From the UHGV virus genome UHGV-1695514: a stretch of 18,900 nucleotides of DNA; one strand, 5' to 3'. A program made the position numbers and the translations under genes. Below the pieces are notes generated by a model, which worked only from the letters and a program-made list of their open reading frames with translations, did not search any database and had not been told where the DNA came from. Source of the stretch: a virus. The number at the start of each line of letters is the position of its first letter. The stretch's first letter is position 1. This document shows, one piece after another, positions 3,749-9,815 of the stretch.

Positions 3749-3890
3749 ACCTCAGACCGTGGGCGTACAATTCTGCGATGGGGCAAACCCTATCTACATC
3801 AGCAAGGACGACGCCCTGACAGAAGAAACTGAGAGAGAAATCCTGATCCACAACACGCTGGGTGAAAGAATTTGTGATTGGGGGCGGTAG
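3669..3890 (+). CDS. o-spanin (Rz1-like outer-membrane lipoprotein), overlapping the 3' end of the i-spanin gene
   Basis: Signal peptide with lipobox AISGC (MRRLMKSGLRMLLPFIASFAISGC); short mature protein with additional Cys residues; overlapped architecture. Start could also be the in-frame ATG at 3681 or 3699. Confidence 0.7.
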   Translation: MRRLMKSGLRMLLPFIASFAISGCVIKPQTVGVQFCDGANPIYISKDDALTEETEREILIHNTLGERICDWGR

Positions 3891-3908
3891 CATTTTATGC
3901 CCCGCCTC

Positions 3909-3960
3909 AGAGGATACGCTGCGTTACACTACCTAAACTATGGCGTATCCTCTTTTCTTC
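3909..3960 (+). terminator. hairpin with 11-bp perfect stem followed by a T-rich tract; probable terminator of the lysis cassette
   Basis: AGAGGATACGC (3909-3919) pairs with GCGTATCCTCT (3943-3953), loop 23 nt, then TTTTCTTC. The loop is longer than in a textbook intrinsic terminator. Confidence 0.45.
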
Positions 3961-4019
3961 ACATCTGTCGTCAGAGCTTGATATTCACGGCATCTAACTG
4001 TGCTTCATTCAACCTCATG

Positions 4020-4078
4020 TTGAATGATCCTGCTTAATGATGTAGATTTGATATGACTACAGTCATAACGTGTAGTCA
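4020..4078 (+). promoter_or_regulatory. candidate sigma70-type promoter with a hairpin/operator overlapping the predicted transcription start
   Basis: TTGAAT (4020-4025), 17-bp spacer, TAGATT (4043-4048). Immediately downstream is the inverted repeat TGACTACA (4054-4061) / TGTAGTCA (4071-4078), and a second palindrome GCTACG-CATACT-CGTAGC at about 4084-4101. Confidence 0.3.
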
Positions 4079-4164
4079 CATTCAAGCTACGCATACTCGT
4101 AGCCTCTAAACCCCACAGGGGGTCGCCGCAACGACAGCATTGTCTCAACGGCTAAGGTGGAAAC

Positions 4165-4563
4165 ATGCATAACGCACTTAACTCATCACGTTCTATTCAA
4201 ACGATTAGAGACTGTACCAACATGATCGCATCGGTTCCTTTGCGTCATTGGGATGACTCGCTCCAAATCCGAGAAATGGGCACACCAGGTGAACTTAAGG
4301 ATCAGCGTTTCATCATTACACTGAAGAGTGACGTGGAAGCAGGTAGCTTTACTATCAAATTATTTGCTGAGTTGATGGTTCTGAACAACCGTTTGCGCTT
4401 CCTCGTGAAGCCCGAAAAACAGTTTCCAGAAGTCGTTTACTGCGAAAGGCAAATTTTTTCGGATATCGAGAGTGAAATTGCTACTTTTGTTAAGGACAAG
4501 TACAGTGTAGATGTTAGTCTTGTCCGTACAGATAAATCAATGGACATGCGGCTTGCAAACTAG
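4165..4563 (+). CDS. hypothetical protein (132 aa), first gene of a low-GC two-gene island
   Basis: ATG 4165 preceded by AAGGTGG (4153-4159). No recognisable motif. The stop TAG 4561-4563 directly abuts the ATG of the next gene. Confidence 0.7.
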   Translation: MHNALNSSRSIQTIRDCTNMIASVPLRHWDDSLQIREMGTPGELKDQRFIITLKSDVEAGSFTIKLFAELMVLNNRLRFLVKPEKQFPEVVYCERQIFSDIESEIATFVKDKYSVDVSLVRTDKSMDMRLAN

Positions 4564-5352
4564 ATGGCACCTTCACTAATCGCGGATTACAAAAAGGTAC
4601 TCTCAGATTTCCCAGATCATGATAAACGCGAAAAAATCCGAGTCGGCTATACGGTTGGCTCGGATTTTTCTGTTTTGCGCCTTACTGAGTGGGCGTTGAC
4701 GGGGTCAAGTTACCCATATTGCCTCACTGTATCTGTGGTAGGGGCGCCAGATAATGAGTGGTTGCAAGAAATTGCAATAGAAATGGATGCCTCTGATAAT
4801 GATGAAGAGGAAATCATTGGCTACATACGTGCTTTAGTCGGTGCTGAACCTGAAGATGATGATGGCATCCAGATCGCTAGATTTGTATACAGAGATTTTC
4901 TGTTTCGGTCACAACAAGGTCACCACAGCGGAGTGCAGATTAAAGGTGCTTTTGTTGATCCTTCCAAGGAAAAGAAAGGCCTTGCCCGCTTAGTATATGG
5001 CTTCCTCCTTAACTGGCACGAGCATATCATCAGCGATGACCATCAGACGGTTTATGGGGCTAAGATATGGGCCGTTGGGATGTTAAAAGTAGGTAGAGTG
5101 CAAGTCTACGATAACATAAAAAGTGATTTTGTAGATGTGCTTACTGAAGGCGGTATCGGTATAAATGGATTCAAGCCTTGGGATGCTATGATGCTCAAAG
5201 AAGCACAGCTAAAGCACTGGAACCCTATGGCGATTAGTATAGACCCATCATCGCAGATTCTAGCCATCATTTCAGCGTCTGACAGGCATCAGTATAATGG
5301 TGTTACTGTTTTTAACAGAGTCGTTAGACGAAGGCTCAGAGTAACGAGATAA
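4564..5352 (+). CDS. hypothetical protein (262 aa), second gene of the low-GC island
   Basis: ATG immediately follows the upstream stop (probably co-translated). Acidic stretch (DASDNDEEEI, EPEDDDG). No recognisable catalytic motif. Followed by an intrinsic terminator. Confidence 0.7.
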   Translation: MAPSLIADYKKVLSDFPDHDKREKIRVGYTVGSDFSVLRLTEWALTGSSYPYCLTVSVVGAPDNEWLQEIAIEMDASDNDEEEIIGYIRALVGAEPEDDDGIQIARFVYRDFLFRSQQGHHSGVQIKGAFVDPSKEKKGLARLVYGFLLNWHEHIISDDHQTVYGAKIWAVGMLKVGRVQVYDNIKSDFVDVLTEGGIGINGFKPWDAMMLKEAQLKHWNPMAISIDPSSQILAIISASDRHQYNGVTVFNRVVRRRLRVTR

Positions 5353-5373
5353 ACCCGCTGCGGCGGGTTTTTT
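5353..5373 (+). terminator. rho-independent terminator
   Basis: CCCGC-TGCG-GCGGG hairpin (5354-5367) followed by TTTTTT (5368-5373), directly after the stop at 5350-5352. Confidence 0.8.
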
Positions 5374-5456
5374 GTTGCCATCCTTTAATTAACTCCAAAG
5401 TACCTACCATTTCACCTTTACACCGCAGCCGTAGGCATTTAGGCTATATCGCATAT

Positions 5457-5474
5457 AAGAAAACAAGTTGTTTC
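5457..5474. promoter_or_regulatory. palindromic operator-like element AGAAAACAAGTTGTTTC upstream of parA
   Basis: AAACAA-G-TTGTTT palindrome at 5461-5473, ending 35 bp before the parA start. A near-identical element (AGAAAACAACTTGTTT) precedes the helicase gene. Confidence 0.45.
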
Positions 5475-5508
5475 ATACGACGATAAATCACACGTAGGGA
5501 TATCACGA

Positions 5509-6536: not shown

Positions 6537-6581
6537 ATAAGAGGCGTCGAAAGATGCCTTTAACTCAAAAGGACTTTGTTT

Positions 6582-7340
6582 GTGCTGTACAAATACGTAG
6601 GGCATGAAGACCCAAACGAATTAATCAAAATTCTTAAATTCTTCATCGAAGATGGAACCATCCGAGCCACCCGGCCACACGACTTCAATGATCCTGCCGA
6701 GTTCAAAGCCAAATTTAGTTTTGACGCCACGATCCAAGAGAAGCTTGTCCGATATCATGAGATGTGGCCTGGCAAAAGCGACGATGACGGTGAGAACTGG
6801 TTAAGAGGGCGAACCAAAAACGCCGAAGAGTTTGACGCCTATATGCTGCGCGGAAATCTGCTTTTGGATACTGGTGTGATATGCCTCACCAGAACTGACA
6901 CTAATTACCTGATGTGGTCGCATTACGCCAGCTCCCACTCTGGATTTTGCATAGGGTTTGATGACGCTATTGTGGAAGCGCTGGATGACCGACACACAGC
7001 GTTAAACGGTGACGTGGAGTACGTGAAATCGCCGCCTGAAGTGAACTTCTATACCGCTGATGTGTACGACATTGTCAGAGCCATCTTTCTGCACAAGGGT
7101 GAGAGCTGGAAGTACGAAGAAGAGTTCCGGATTATCTCTGAGCTGCCAGGGCTTAAGAAGTTGGACACCTCGCTCATCAAAGAGATTTCTATCGGATGCA
7201 AACCCTATCCAGAGCTGGAAAGTTTTGCCCGTGAACTGCTGGACAGCAATCTGGCCGTGTACAAAATGCTTTGCCCTACCGACTCGTACCAACTGAAGCG
7301 TGTGGAGCTGGACAAGAACCTTTCTTTTCAAGGTTACTAG
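6582..7340 (+). CDS. DUF2971-like protein of unknown function
   Basis: N-terminal LYKY motif, FNDP-AEF, and a central MWSHYA...GFCIGFD block resemble my recollection of the DUF2971 family. Start is ambiguous: GTG 6582 (AAGGA 9 nt upstream) or TTG 6576. Lower GC than flanking genes. Confidence 0.5.
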   Translation: MLYKYVGHEDPNELIKILKFFIEDGTIRATRPHDFNDPAEFKAKFSFDATIQEKLVRYHEMWPGKSDDDGENWLRGRTKNAEEFDAYMLRGNLLLDTGVICLTRTDTNYLMWSHYASSHSGFCIGFDDAIVEALDDRHTALNGDVEYVKSPPEVNFYTADVYDIVRAIFLHKGESWKYEEEFRIISELPGLKKLDTSLIKEISIGCKPYPELESFARELLDSNLAVYKMLCPTDSYQLKRVELDKNLSFQGY

Positions 7341-7533: not shown

Positions 7534-8259
7534 ATGAGCCAGATCTTTTTTGACACCATAAACAACGGCCAGTACGACTTCATGACAGAGTGGGACACGG
7601 TCGCCATGGACAAGTGGGTTGCGGAAAACATCGGTCTTTCACGATGCCAGGGGGAGGCTGAGCTCTTTGATACAAAGTGGTTTGACTATCGCGACATGCA
7701 CCCGCTGATGGCAACCTGTCTGTTCACCGAAGCCTATAAGCGCGCATACTCACAGATCATGCTGTCTCATGGCCGCGAGCATTTCGAGACGGCGCCATTC
7801 AGCACTGGTCTGAAACGCCTGCCTTACCAAGAGCTTTCGGCGGTGAACAAAACCTCTCTCTGGAAAGCTCGCCAGTTTGCAGATCGGTATTGCTGTTCTT
7901 ATGACTATTTTATATCAACTGTTCTCTCTGCAGCTGCACGCCGGCTCTGGGACAAATTACCTCGCCCTCAGCATCTTTGGCAGCCAGAACTGATTGAGAT
8001 CTTCGAAAGCAAACTCGCCAGTCGTGCGGGAACGCGTCTGGATGACTCTGTAGTGAGTTTTAAGCACTTAGGAGACATGCAGCATGACCCAATTCAGGAA
8101 CGTTACTTTGAATGGGTTCTGGAGCGTTTGAAGCACATCACCCGTGATAAGCGTATCCGCACCATCTTCTCTGCTGTCTGGTTGATGGAGCTGGTGCCTG
8201 AGCGCGTTATCTATGCCCATTACCCGGAAGAACTGGAAGAAGCACGGCGACTGTGTTGA
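7534..8259 (+). CDS. hypothetical protein (241 aa)
   Basis: Long ORF with uniform coding-like composition; no recognisable motif. Confidence 0.65.
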   Translation: MSQIFFDTINNGQYDFMTEWDTVAMDKWVAENIGLSRCQGEAELFDTKWFDYRDMHPLMATCLFTEAYKRAYSQIMLSHGREHFETAPFSTGLKRLPYQELSAVNKTSLWKARQFADRYCCSYDYFISTVLSAAARRLWDKLPRPQHLWQPELIEIFESKLASRAGTRLDDSVVSFKHLGDMQHDPIQERYFEWVLERLKHITRDKRIRTIFSAVWLMELVPERVIYAHYPEELEEARRLC

Positions 8260-8282
8260 TTGCCTGTTCCATATTTTTACGA

Positions 8283-8300
8283 TTAGAAAACAACTTGTTT
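8283..8300. promoter_or_regulatory. palindromic operator-like element AGAAAACAACTTGTTT upstream of the helicase gene
   Basis: AAACAA-C-TTGTTT palindrome at 8288-8300, 23 bp before the ATG at 8324. Matches the element upstream of parA at 17 of 18 positions. Confidence 0.45.
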
Positions 8301-8323
8301 AAGCACCAAAGGATATCAAACAC

Positions 8324-9664
8324 ATGACCGAACTTTGCCACACGGGACGAGGGTTGTCTGAAGAGTTCGACGACGACTTCCAGAATCGTCTGGCGGCGTA
8401 TTTTTGCCGCGATCATGAGTTTCTGACTCGTGCCGGCGATCTGGTTGCCCCCAACCAATTCTCCAATGCGGCGAACGCCATACTGGTGAACATGGTATCG
8501 GGCTATTTCAGAATGTATAAGAGCGCGCCGTCATCGGCGGCCATCCTCGATATGTTGAAGCGTGCTAAACGCGATAAGACGATCAGAGAAGAGATGTTCC
8601 CGGATGTTGTGGCGGCGTTTAAGCGGGTGCTCTCGGAAAAACTCTCTGATACGGCTTACATGGTCGACCAGGTCGCGACGTTCGCTAAAAGTGTAGCGTT
8701 CGACGATGCGTTGATTAAAGCGGCCGAGATGAAGGAGAAGGGCGACTTCCAGGGAGCGATGGCCATCATGGCCAAAGTGCAGCAGATCGGTTCTAACGAA
8801 GCGACGGGCATTTATGACTATTACGCCTCTGCAGCGGAACGTTACAAGGCCCGTGAATATGAAGCCTCTGATGATTACGTGCCGAACAGCATCACCACCG
8901 GTCTTCCGCTGCTGGATCGCATGCTTTATCAAAAAGGTTGGGCGAAACGTGAGATGGTGCTCTTCATGGGGTTTGCGAAATCAGGTAAATCGACAGCGAT
9001 GGGGGAGTTCTCCATTAACGCAACGCTGGCCGGCTACAACGTTTTGTATCTTTCTCTCGAAGTGCATACCTCGATTCTCTCCGATCGCTTCGATGCACGG
9101 CTGTCTGAAACGGAGATGTCAAAGCTGGTAGAGCAGCGTGACGACGTTCACCGGAAACTCGCGGAGCTTGGCGCGACGAAAGGGGTGGGGAATCTCTGGG
9201 TGGTTGAGCGCCCGTCAGGAAGCATGTCGCCTGCAGATTTGGATCGTATGCTCAATAGCATGAAAGCGAATGGCATGATCCCGGATATGGTGGTGGTCGA
9301 CTATGCGGACTTGATGCGTGCCAGTTACGACCTCCGTGACGACCGGGCGAACATCCGTTCTATCTACACCGATCTGCGTGCTCTCTACGATAAGCACAAC
9401 GTTGCAGGAATCACGGCATCCCAGACCAACCGTGAAGGTGGCTCATCCGAAGTGGCCACCATGATGCACGCCGCAGACAATATCGAAAAAGTCCGTATCG
9501 CCGACTTAGTCATCACTATCAACAAGACTGAGGAGGAAGAAGCCAAAGGTGAAGCACGACTCTATTTTGCTGGTTCCCGTAACCAGAAGGGCGGGGTGAG
9601 TATTCGCGTTAAGCAGAATCTCGAACAGATGCGCTTCATCGAGCGGATCATGGAAGTTCTTTAA
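8324..9664 (+). CDS. DnaB-like replicative DNA helicase (RecA-fold ATPase)
   Basis: Walker A GFAKSGKST, Walker B-like MVVVDYADLM, helicase-like C-terminal region (ITASQTNREG); 446 aa; adjacent to a primase gene. Confidence 0.75.
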   Translation: MTELCHTGRGLSEEFDDDFQNRLAAYFCRDHEFLTRAGDLVAPNQFSNAANAILVNMVSGYFRMYKSAPSSAAILDMLKRAKRDKTIREEMFPDVVAAFKRVLSEKLSDTAYMVDQVATFAKSVAFDDALIKAAEMKEKGDFQGAMAIMAKVQQIGSNEATGIYDYYASAAERYKAREYEASDDYVPNSITTGLPLLDRMLYQKGWAKREMVLFMGFAKSGKSTAMGEFSINATLAGYNVLYLSLEVHTSILSDRFDARLSETEMSKLVEQRDDVHRKLAELGATKGVGNLWVVERPSGSMSPADLDRMLNSMKANGMIPDMVVVDYADLMRASYDLRDDRANIRSIYTDLRALYDKHNVAGITASQTNREGGSSEVATMMHAADNIEKVRIADLVITINKTEEEEAKGEARLYFAGSRNQKGGVSIRVKQNLEQMRFIERIMEVL

Positions 9665-9671
9665 AAAAATA

Positions 9672-9712
9672 GGCGTGGGGCAAAGACGGATAACAGCCCC
9701 ACGCCCTTAAAA
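9672..9712. terminator. 9-bp GC-rich hairpin flanked by A-run upstream and weak T-tract downstream; possible bidirectional terminator
   Basis: GGCGTGGGG (9672-9680) pairs with CCCCACGCC (9697-9705), loop 16 nt. The downstream U-tract on the + strand is weak (CTTAAAAATT); on the - strand it is followed by a T-run. Confidence 0.4.
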
Positions 9713-9746
9713 ATTACCTTTTGGTTAATCACAAAAGGAAAAACAC

Positions 9747-9815
9747 ATGAGCCTTTATGGTATTCAAAAAACGCGGCTTATCAAGATATTGCCGTTTAAA
9801 AACTGCGGTAAATGA
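9747..9815 (+). CDS. possible 22-codon upstream ORF translationally coupled to the primase gene
   Basis: AAGGA (9735-9739) 7 nt before ATG 9747; encodes MSLYGIQKTRLIKILPFKNCGK. Its TGA (9813-9815) overlaps the primase ATG (9812-9814), which itself has no obvious RBS. Confidence 0.25.
   Translation: MSLYGIQKTRLIKILPFKNCGK

Follow-up and report, generated by a model that had tools for sequence, protein, structure and literature searches.

A mobile two-gene cassette with a predicted GNAT-fold protein at the lysis-partition site of an SSU5-like phage-plasmid

Virus genome UHGV-1695514 is represented here by a stretch of 18,900 nucleotides (hereafter, the window), in which we analyzed two adjacent genes, termed A and B, located between the lysis cassette and the partition module. 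The window can be assigned to an SSU5-like phage-plasmid of Klebsiella pneumoniae. Positions 3900-5500 (1.6 kb compared) are 100% identical to NZ_CP089764.1, a 117-kb IncFIB "plasmid" of K. pneumoniae, and the genes of the window are ordered as tail fibre, holin, endolysin, Rz/Rz1, A, B, ParA, ParB-like, DUF2971, DnaB-type helicase, and primase. A preliminary description of this DNA had presented A and B as a self-contained, AT-rich unit of horizontal origin lying between the lysis and partition genes, a placement confirmed by the holin, endolysin, Rz, and Rz1 genes on its 5' side and the ParA and ParB-like genes on its 3' side.

Gene A (4165-4563) encodes a 132 amino acid protein and gene B (4564-5352) a 262 amino acid protein, both on the plus strand, as are all other features of the window given below unless stated otherwise. 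The stop codon of A abuts the start codon of B with zero gap (TAG followed by ATG), as previously noted. Both open reading frames (ORFs) are real genes, since A matches phrog_2594 (2e-43) and B matches phrog_3307 (3e-76), two PHROG families without known function, and since dozens of homologue clusters were found.

A putative sigma-70-type promoter is located at 4020-4048, including a -35 element (TTGAAT, 4020-4025), a 17-nt spacer, and a -10 element (TAGATT, 4043-4048). A generic promoter scan missed this promoter, which has 8/12 matches and falls under the scan cut-off; the pattern TTGnnn-17-TAGATT is present 5' of A in 15/18 independent loci, chromosomal ones included, indicating that the promoter is real in a comparative sense. 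Transcription would start at approximately position 4055. The two palindromes that had been described are also present: the first (4052-4067, TATGACT-AC-AGTCATA) lies across the predicted start site and within a predicted 5'-terminal RNA hairpin (4055-4077), and the second (GCTACG/CGTAGC) is located at 4086-4103. Other alleles have a different sequence at the position of the first palindrome and often keep its dyad symmetry. These palindromes may be RNA hairpins of a structured leader, instead of or besides being operators. An operator co-varying with the allele of A was rejected as unsupported, because the promoter and leader of the window are identical to those of plasmid p4727, while the proteins share 44% (A) and 30% (B) identity.

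Downstream of B, a terminator scan identified the intrinsic terminator expected from the preliminary description (5351-5376; AAACCCGC-TGCG-GCGGGTTT then TTTGTT), with an 8-bp G+C-rich stem (5351-5370) ahead of TTTTTTGTT. Most alleles have this hairpin, or an equivalent one, and a U run 3' of B. On the other side of the cassette, a second hairpin followed by TTTTCTT is located just 3' of the Rz1 stop codon (3909-3960; 11-bp arms at 3909-3919 and 3943-3953, 100% complementary), and is probably a terminator separating transcription of the late lysis operon from that of the cassette. The GC content is 0.426 for A and 0.444 for B, and the GC content at third codon positions (GC3) is 0.451 and 0.414, respectively, as compared with 0.56-0.63 in the tail, lysis, par, and replication genes. 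Together, A and B are within the lowest 2.8% of equal-size windows for GC content, in agreement with the AT-richness first reported.

The transcript of the cassette has two predicted structured regions. The first is a conserved 76-nt 5' leader (4092-4167) that ends at the start codon of A, in which a C/U-rich anti-Shine-Dalgarno stretch (CUCGUAGCCUCU, 4096-4107) would pair with the Shine-Dalgarno sequence AAGGUGG and the bases next to it (4154-4163), and this long-range helix encloses two hairpins (4110-4123 and 4125-4152). As a single sequence, the 110-nt leader folds better than 200/200 shuffles (z = -3.1). In 10 leaders, 95% of the predicted pairs form, as compared with 38-51% when the partners are slid, and in an alignment of 16 distinct leaders 93% of the cells are paired and six pairs change on both sides, a result reached by 0/500 shuffles; these sequences are related, the structure was itself derived from them, and the 16-leader alignment was obtained by fitting to the model. 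Variation in the helix that masks the Shine-Dalgarno sequence consists of C/U changes opposite G only. A covariance model (R1) built on the 10 leaders detected the element directly 5' of A in 22/40 loci and nowhere else in the searched sequence; the Photorhabdus/Xenorhabdus and Acinetobacter clades lack it, as do some prophage clades. A search of positions 3880-5450 against Rfam (cmscan, E <= 1) gave no match to the leader, and only a sub-threshold rsmX match over the terminator. The leader is therefore best described as a candidate new cis-regulatory RNA motif that would mask the Shine-Dalgarno sequence of A.

The second structured region lies within B. The terminator scan predicted a terminator-like hairpin at 4632-4679, 70 nt into the gene, with a 17-pair stem (4632-4669, dG = -22.7 kcal/mol) followed by CTGTTTTG; no other 40-nt fold in the operon is as strong (z = -5.7). 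In 8/18 alleles, a comparably strong hairpin lies 10-130 nt into B, as compared with approximately 2 expected from the length of the region, and the sequences of these hairpins differ. Between the window and Escherichia coli pLH09, synonymous compensatory changes preserve the stem (CGA to AGA with TCG to TCT). This hairpin is a candidate attenuator, by which the level of B would be kept under that of A.

Our analysis also identified a strict association between both genes. A homologue of A is encoded directly 5' of B in 28/28 loci scanned with a profile hidden Markov model and in 34/35 further viral loci analyzed by tblastn; the 35th (L067) has a 119 amino acid ORF directly 5' of B, whose homology to A was unchecked. 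In addition, the pairwise identities of A and B correlate (r = 0.88). On the basis of its position in more than 60 loci and of this correlation, A is an obligate partner of B. Both genes overlap by 16 nt in 11/18 alleles, abut in the window and in E. coli pLH09, and are separated by 11-32 nt in the other five, including the 32-nt gap of SSU5, which corresponds to the annotated start. In the overlapping alleles, A ends in a conserved Q-W-H-L and B begins with M-A-P-S, both encoded by the same bases. Reading the window by eye, we found no obvious ribosome-binding site for B, suggesting that translation of B probably depends on translation of A.

Natural disruptions of the pair were identified in three cases. 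In an otherwise identical K. pneumoniae phage-plasmid (NZ_CP097672.1; L030 2165-4154), an IS5-family element (ISEc68) is inserted in gene B and A is intact; this is a circular plasmid record of a size normal for the family, which indicates that B is dispensable for maintenance of the element. In PhiR12 phages, B is frameshifted and A is intact. Finally, one draft assembly has a frameshifted A and an intact B. With B lost twice and A lost once, these events are too few to decide on toxicity, and we did not retain them as a test of it.

In regard to protein B, the preliminary description had found no assignable motif in either protein, which no longer applies to B and still holds for A. An AlphaFold2 model of B built from 21 homologues (pLDDT 77.6, pTM 0.77; predicted local distance difference test and template modeling scores) shows a mixed beta-sheet and the beta4-alpha3-beta5-alpha4 core of the GCN5-related N-acetyltransferase (GNAT) fold, located at approximately residues 103-193, and its structural neighbours include AtaT, TacT2, and TacT3. 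The sequence of B has no match in Pfam at E <= 1, and neither A nor B has an informative match among sequences in the Protein Data Bank. An exhaustive profile search of 1.84 billion representatives retrieved only 68 relatives of B. The weakest of these are multi-domain proteins, very long and combining a GNAT domain with ParB-like nuclease or IrrE-like domains. In three proteins, the match to the B profile (residues ~116-185; E-values of 4e-6 to 2e-4) coincides with Pfam Acetyltransf_1/7 domains: 272-319 versus 267-335 in P0105, 253-299 versus 231-281 in P0109, and 271-341 versus 246-294 in P0112. According to this model, B is a very divergent GNAT-fold enzyme.

Among 23 diverse members of the B family, Acinetobacter included, the invariant residues include R106, Q125, Y145, D158, Q161, G165, W169, and Y182. 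All of these fall in the predicted beta3-beta6 core, which argues for a working active site. In GNAT enzymes, the pyrophosphate-binding loop of motif A (Q/R-x-x-G-x-G/A) is located between beta4 and alpha3, and its contacts are made by main-chain atoms. At this position B of the window has E-K-K-G-L-A (136-141), with a first residue that is neither Q nor R, and other alleles have A, S, or R in place of the glycine. Since main-chain atoms do the binding, this deviation leaves coenzyme A (CoA) binding possible. In every allele B is acidic, with an isoelectric point (pI) of 4.7-6.1. Given this acidity, a cationic protein or small-molecule substrate fits B better than tRNA.

Protein A was less informative. 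Its structure model is poor (pLDDT 63.6), and Foldseek searches with this low-confidence model gave no support for any fold. Searches against Pfam retrieved only a sub-threshold PilX match, and none of the ribbon-helix-helix (RHH), helix-turn-helix (HTH), or DUF1778 domains was found. A profile search identified 91 clusters of A homologues, all annotated as "hypothetical" and never fused to another domain, none of which has a Pfam domain. These clusters are from Enterobacterales (Klebsiella, Escherichia, Shigella, Photorhabdus, Xenorhabdus, Proteus, and Providencia) and Acinetobacter. Invariant residues are R9, T13, T18, R36, I50, A68, E69, Q86, P88, and I101, and R78 is nearly invariant. The family is mostly basic (pI 8-9.7), with the copy of the window as an exception (pI 6.1). 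A looks like a globular, cytoplasmic partner protein with conserved polar residues.

Next, we compared the lysis-par site among SSU5-like elements. The par-side flank was found in 635 PLSDB plasmids by megablast, and the allele of the window in only 32. B-family genes are encoded in 375 PLSDB plasmids (tblastn), 112 of them from Acinetobacter; very roughly, some allele of the cassette is present on 40% of the related PLSDB plasmids. In K. pneumoniae siblings, the endolysin and ParA are 98-100% identical to those of the window, whereas A shares only 46% and B only 34% identity. E. coli elements with identical endolysin and ParA proteins have four alleles, with B proteins that share 72%, 32%, 31%, and 28% identity with that of the window. 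In sibling phage-plasmids with 98-100% identical flanks, alleles thus have only 30-46% identity to the window, and the syntenic pair of SSU5 shares 36% identity in A and 33% in B over the C-terminal 139 residues (overall range ~26-36%). The site can also be occupied by other genes. In phage Cyrano, a sister phage-plasmid, it encodes, on the opposite strand, a TacA1-type antitoxin (8e-26) and a GNAT toxin, and in the Klebsiella phage pJN2-26 it harbors a third kind of occupant, a single unrelated gene for a 184 amino acid protein (L004 3231-3788, minus strand) with no match in Pfam or PADLOC. The presence/absence comparison proposed at the outset thus found the cassette in part of the relatives only, with replacements in Cyrano and pJN2-26, and the lysis-par site is a multi-allelic hotspot instead of a simple presence/absence island. 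The region 3' of the par genes is variable too: SSU5 and pJN2-26 have two other small genes inserted between the par pair and the DUF2971-family gene, which in the window is located at 6576-7340, 3' of the ParA/ParB-like pair.

The allele of the window is nearer to chromosomal copies of Enterobacter and Erwinia (59-64% identity) than to its siblings, suggesting that alleles have been exchanged horizontally. Similarity between the window and p4727 spans the promoter, the leader, and the first ~60 nt of A and then collapses, a pattern that suggests recombination anchored in the conserved leader. As a separate observation, an annotated CRISPR array in the chromosome of E. coli NY1601 (NZ_CM135959.1, 1059145-1059182) contains 38 nt that are 97% identical to B of the pLH09 allele (L025 1594-1632), and from this similarity the stretch can be read as a spacer acquired against this phage-plasmid family.

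Outside the SSU5-like elements, the cassette was identified in unrelated phages, plasmids, and chromosomes. It stands alone among housekeeping genes in four chromosomes. Its neighbours are the genes of a sugar ABC transporter and of malic enzyme in Erwinia, cat and sohB in Photorhabdus, and rsmI and a LigB-family gene in Pectobacterium; the fourth chromosome is that of Pseudescherichia. The stand-alone chromosomal copies are stably kept within species. In a P2-like prophage it is located between gpA and the portal gene, directly 5' of a PARIS-like AriA/AriB pair; there, positions 7615-9805 of locus L022 encode an AAA_15/AAA_21 ATPase matching AriA (9e-25), followed by a 299 amino acid protein with a weak AriAB match. 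Other P2-like prophages harbor it between gpS and gpV. Lambdoid sites include one 5' of the tail genes M-L-J and one beside the int gene, and in one context the cassette follows a GH108 endolysin. It was also identified on ~110-kb Acinetobacter plasmids and in one 5.5-kb linear plasmid record, and an IncFIB/IncHI1B plasmid has a copy flanked by insertion sequences with mcr-9 adjacent. In 18/20 genomic contexts the cassette is AT-richer than its flanks. Individual alleles are found on 1000 or more contigs, and in every record or cluster examined the cassette is annotated as "hypothetical".

Taken as a whole, this distribution of the same two-gene unit supports the view of the preliminary description that the cassette is a horizontally acquired moron. 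It has its own promoter and terminator, a deviant composition, and a variable presence, and in its contexts it behaves as an autonomous and horizontally mobile one. These traits are shared with other phage morons and hotspots (P2 orf30, tin, and old; the P2/P4 defence hotspots; the lambda b region), and the cassette itself is found at the S-V and gpA-portal sites of P2-like prophages and near int in lambdoid ones, with a PARIS-like neighbour in one prophage. However, "moron" is a positional and evolutionary category and not a mechanism, and the proteins of the cassette match no hotspot system in PADLOC. In PADLOC-DB v2 there was no match for A, B, or the P2-like alleles, while the neighbouring ATPase matched AriA (9e-25) in the same search. 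Neither protein resembles a structural or a replication protein, and not all relatives have the pair; exclusion, defence, and toxin-antitoxin functions, the classes first suggested, are the best candidates for the cassette.

Among described systems, the cassette works most like the GNAT/RHH toxin-antitoxin systems (TacA-TacT, AtaR-AtaT, KacA-KacT, and ItaR-ItaT), yet it is not a member of that family. As in the cassette, these are two-gene operons in which the small gene is first and overlaps or abuts the GNAT gene, and they are encoded on plasmids, prophages, and chromosomes; in addition, the TacA1 and GNAT pair of Cyrano occupies exactly the site of the cassette. In contrast to the TacT/AtaT toxins (~160-180 amino acids), B is ~90 residues longer, acidic, and without a Pfam GNAT match. 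Nor does A have an RHH or DUF1778/TacA domain, whereas the Cyrano antitoxin scores 8e-26 to TacA1 in a test of the same kind. Finally, GNAT/RHH systems are controlled by autorepressing antitoxins, whereas control of the cassette appears to operate at the RNA level, through the leader and the internal hairpin. Literature searches covering the protein accessions, PHROG numbers, SSU5 locus tags, phage-plasmid hotspots, and the role of GNAT proteins in defence did not reveal any earlier account of the pair.

Our tentative interpretation, which we hold with less than even confidence, is that the cassette is a toxin-antitoxin-like or abortive-infection conflict module, a moron expressed in the lysogen with B as a GNAT effector and A as a non-RHH partner. 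This interpretation is based on the obligate pairing with the small gene first, the strict coupling, the devices that appear to limit B, and the stand-alone mobility of the cassette, together with a hotspot shared with a TacAT module, the extreme allelic diversity, and the loss of B with A kept in two lineages. In such a module, B would transfer an acyl group from acyl-CoA to an amine of a target in the cell or the phage, and its acidic surface suggests that this target is cationic, such as a basic protein, peptide, or polyamine-like molecule, and is not tRNA. A would bind B and restrain or direct it, while the leader masking the ribosome-binding site, the strict coupling, and the early hairpin in B would limit the amount of B and prevent its synthesis in the absence of A. 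When the element is lost, or when a phage causes a disturbance, the activity of B would be released, which would then stop growth or block the invader, and in this way the phage-plasmid would be stabilised or its competitors excluded. The diversity of alleles could result from selection against cross-neutralisation between co-resident elements.

Several points weigh against a conflict module. Since tRNA-acetylating GNAT toxins are known to have basic tRNA-binding surfaces, the combination of an acidic B and a mostly basic A looks reversed. A appears to be globular, with invariant polar residues and without RHH, HTH, or DUF1778 domains, in contrast to labile antitoxins of the usual kind. The sequence of B is not similar to that of the TacT-like toxin of Cyrano (hhalign probability 0.3%), and the lack of PADLOC matches for both proteins counts on the same side. 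In addition, a YafO-family toxin module is already present elsewhere in the window. The draft assembly in which A is frameshifted and B is intact is also unexpected for a toxin and its antitoxin, although lost translational coupling could explain why this frameshift is tolerated. A specific form of the conflict-module interpretation, which we regard as possible and doubtful in its full extent, is that the cassette represents an undescribed family that combines an acidic, highly divergent GNAT effector with an obligate non-RHH, non-HTH partner, a leader masking the ribosome-binding site, and an in-gene attenuator. The many alleles of this family would mediate allele-specific exclusion or addiction among SSU5-like phage-plasmids as well as defence against other phages, and would act on a protein or another cationic target instead of tRNA. 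A related arrangement is found in split toxin-antitoxin systems of the HipBST type, in which the antitoxin resembles a toxin domain; a comparison of the A and B profiles, made with a common origin by duplication in mind, was not significant, and the model of A is of low confidence.

The acidity of B in all alleles is also what an enzyme without toxicity could show, since a low pI is typical of enzymes whose substrates are polycationic, for example aminoglycosides, polyamines, or histone tails. Accordingly, A and B could form a two-subunit acyltransferase for lysogenic conversion, whose substrate would be either a host protein or a small cationic molecule such as an antibiotic, bacteriocin, peptide, or polyamine, with resistance, tolerance, or superinfection exclusion without cell death as the benefit. 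The conserved polar residues of A resemble those of a ligand-binding or catalytic subunit, and both the stability of the chromosomal copies within species and the tolerated frameshift in A agree with such a function. We nevertheless consider it rather unlikely: no known family of resistance acetyltransferases resembles B, which has no Pfam or NCBI-style name and only "hypothetical" homologues; a metabolic or resistance enzyme would not usually show such extreme allele divergence within identical flanks or reside in phage hotspots for accessory or defence genes; and the elaborate devices limiting B suggest a dangerous product.

A dedicated anti-phage defence system that is not toxin-antitoxin-like, in which A would sense the infection and B would acylate a phage component, is an unlikely explanation, and one that overlaps the conflict module to the extent that sequence alone does not separate them. 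The cassette adjoins the PARIS-like pair in the P2 gpA-portal hotspot, it occupies moron positions in several temperate phage families, and its allelic diversification is consistent with an arms race. However, there is no match among ~5000 PADLOC models, the location next to a known defence system is limited to one case, and most chromosomal copies are isolated and outside defence islands.

GNAT enzymes also take part in counter-defence and self-protection. AcrVA5 is a single-gene GNAT anti-CRISPR protein of ~90 residues that acetylates a host immune protein, and Mom of phage Mu is a GNAT-fold DNA modifier regulated by Com. Like AcrVA5, B would be a GNAT enzyme from a mobile element engaged in genetic conflict, and the weak profile matches to multi-domain proteins joining GNAT with ParB-like nuclease or IrrE-like domains point in this direction, as does the small 5' gene that overlaps a GNAT gene and is accompanied by an RNA hairpin, an arrangement reminiscent of com-mom. 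We consider it improbable that B modifies a host immune protein or DNA under regulation by A. In contrast to AcrVA5, the cassette is an obligate two-gene unit that is also found alone in chromosomes, where isolated copies with a constitutive-type promoter are ill-suited to an infection-stage gene. Compared with com-mom, A is not similar to the zinc-finger protein Com, the hairpin is located 70 nt inside B and not across its start codon, and B lacks specific similarity to Mom and is acidic, making DNA binding unlikely. Finally, an ordinary backbone function in partition, replication, lysis, or the virion, suggested by the location between the lysis and par modules and by the syntenic pair in SSU5, was rejected as hardly credible: B is interrupted by IS5 in a circular plasmid whose size is normal for the family, many relatives lack the cassette or have a replacement, and chromosomes and unrelated phages harbor it too.

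Among clinical Klebsiella, E. coli, Shigella, and Salmonella, SSU5-like phage-plasmids are frequent. If the cassette is indeed a conflict module, a GNAT effector outside the TacT/AtaT clade with a non-RHH partner would widen the range of acetyltransferase conflict systems and point to a new target. A hyper-allelic hotspot beside the par genes would in turn be a plausible determinant of competition and incompatibility among phage-plasmids, and hence of the persistence of carriers of resistance genes, while the leader RNA and the hairpin in B would represent a case of RNA-level dosing of a two-protein module.

Other candidate accessory genes were identified toward the 3' end of the window. An ORF at 16528-16938 encodes a YafO-family type II toxin (Pfam, 3.5e-24), and just 5' of it a 205 amino acid ORF without a Pfam match (15901-16518) could encode its partner. 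On the minus strand, a 119 amino acid ORF (17002-17361; GC 0.40, GC3 0.38) matches the colicin E1/microcin immunity family (Pfam, 9e-07). It lies within a patch at ~16500-17700 that alone in the window has a lower GC content than A and B together, and this low-GC region is probably another accessory island.

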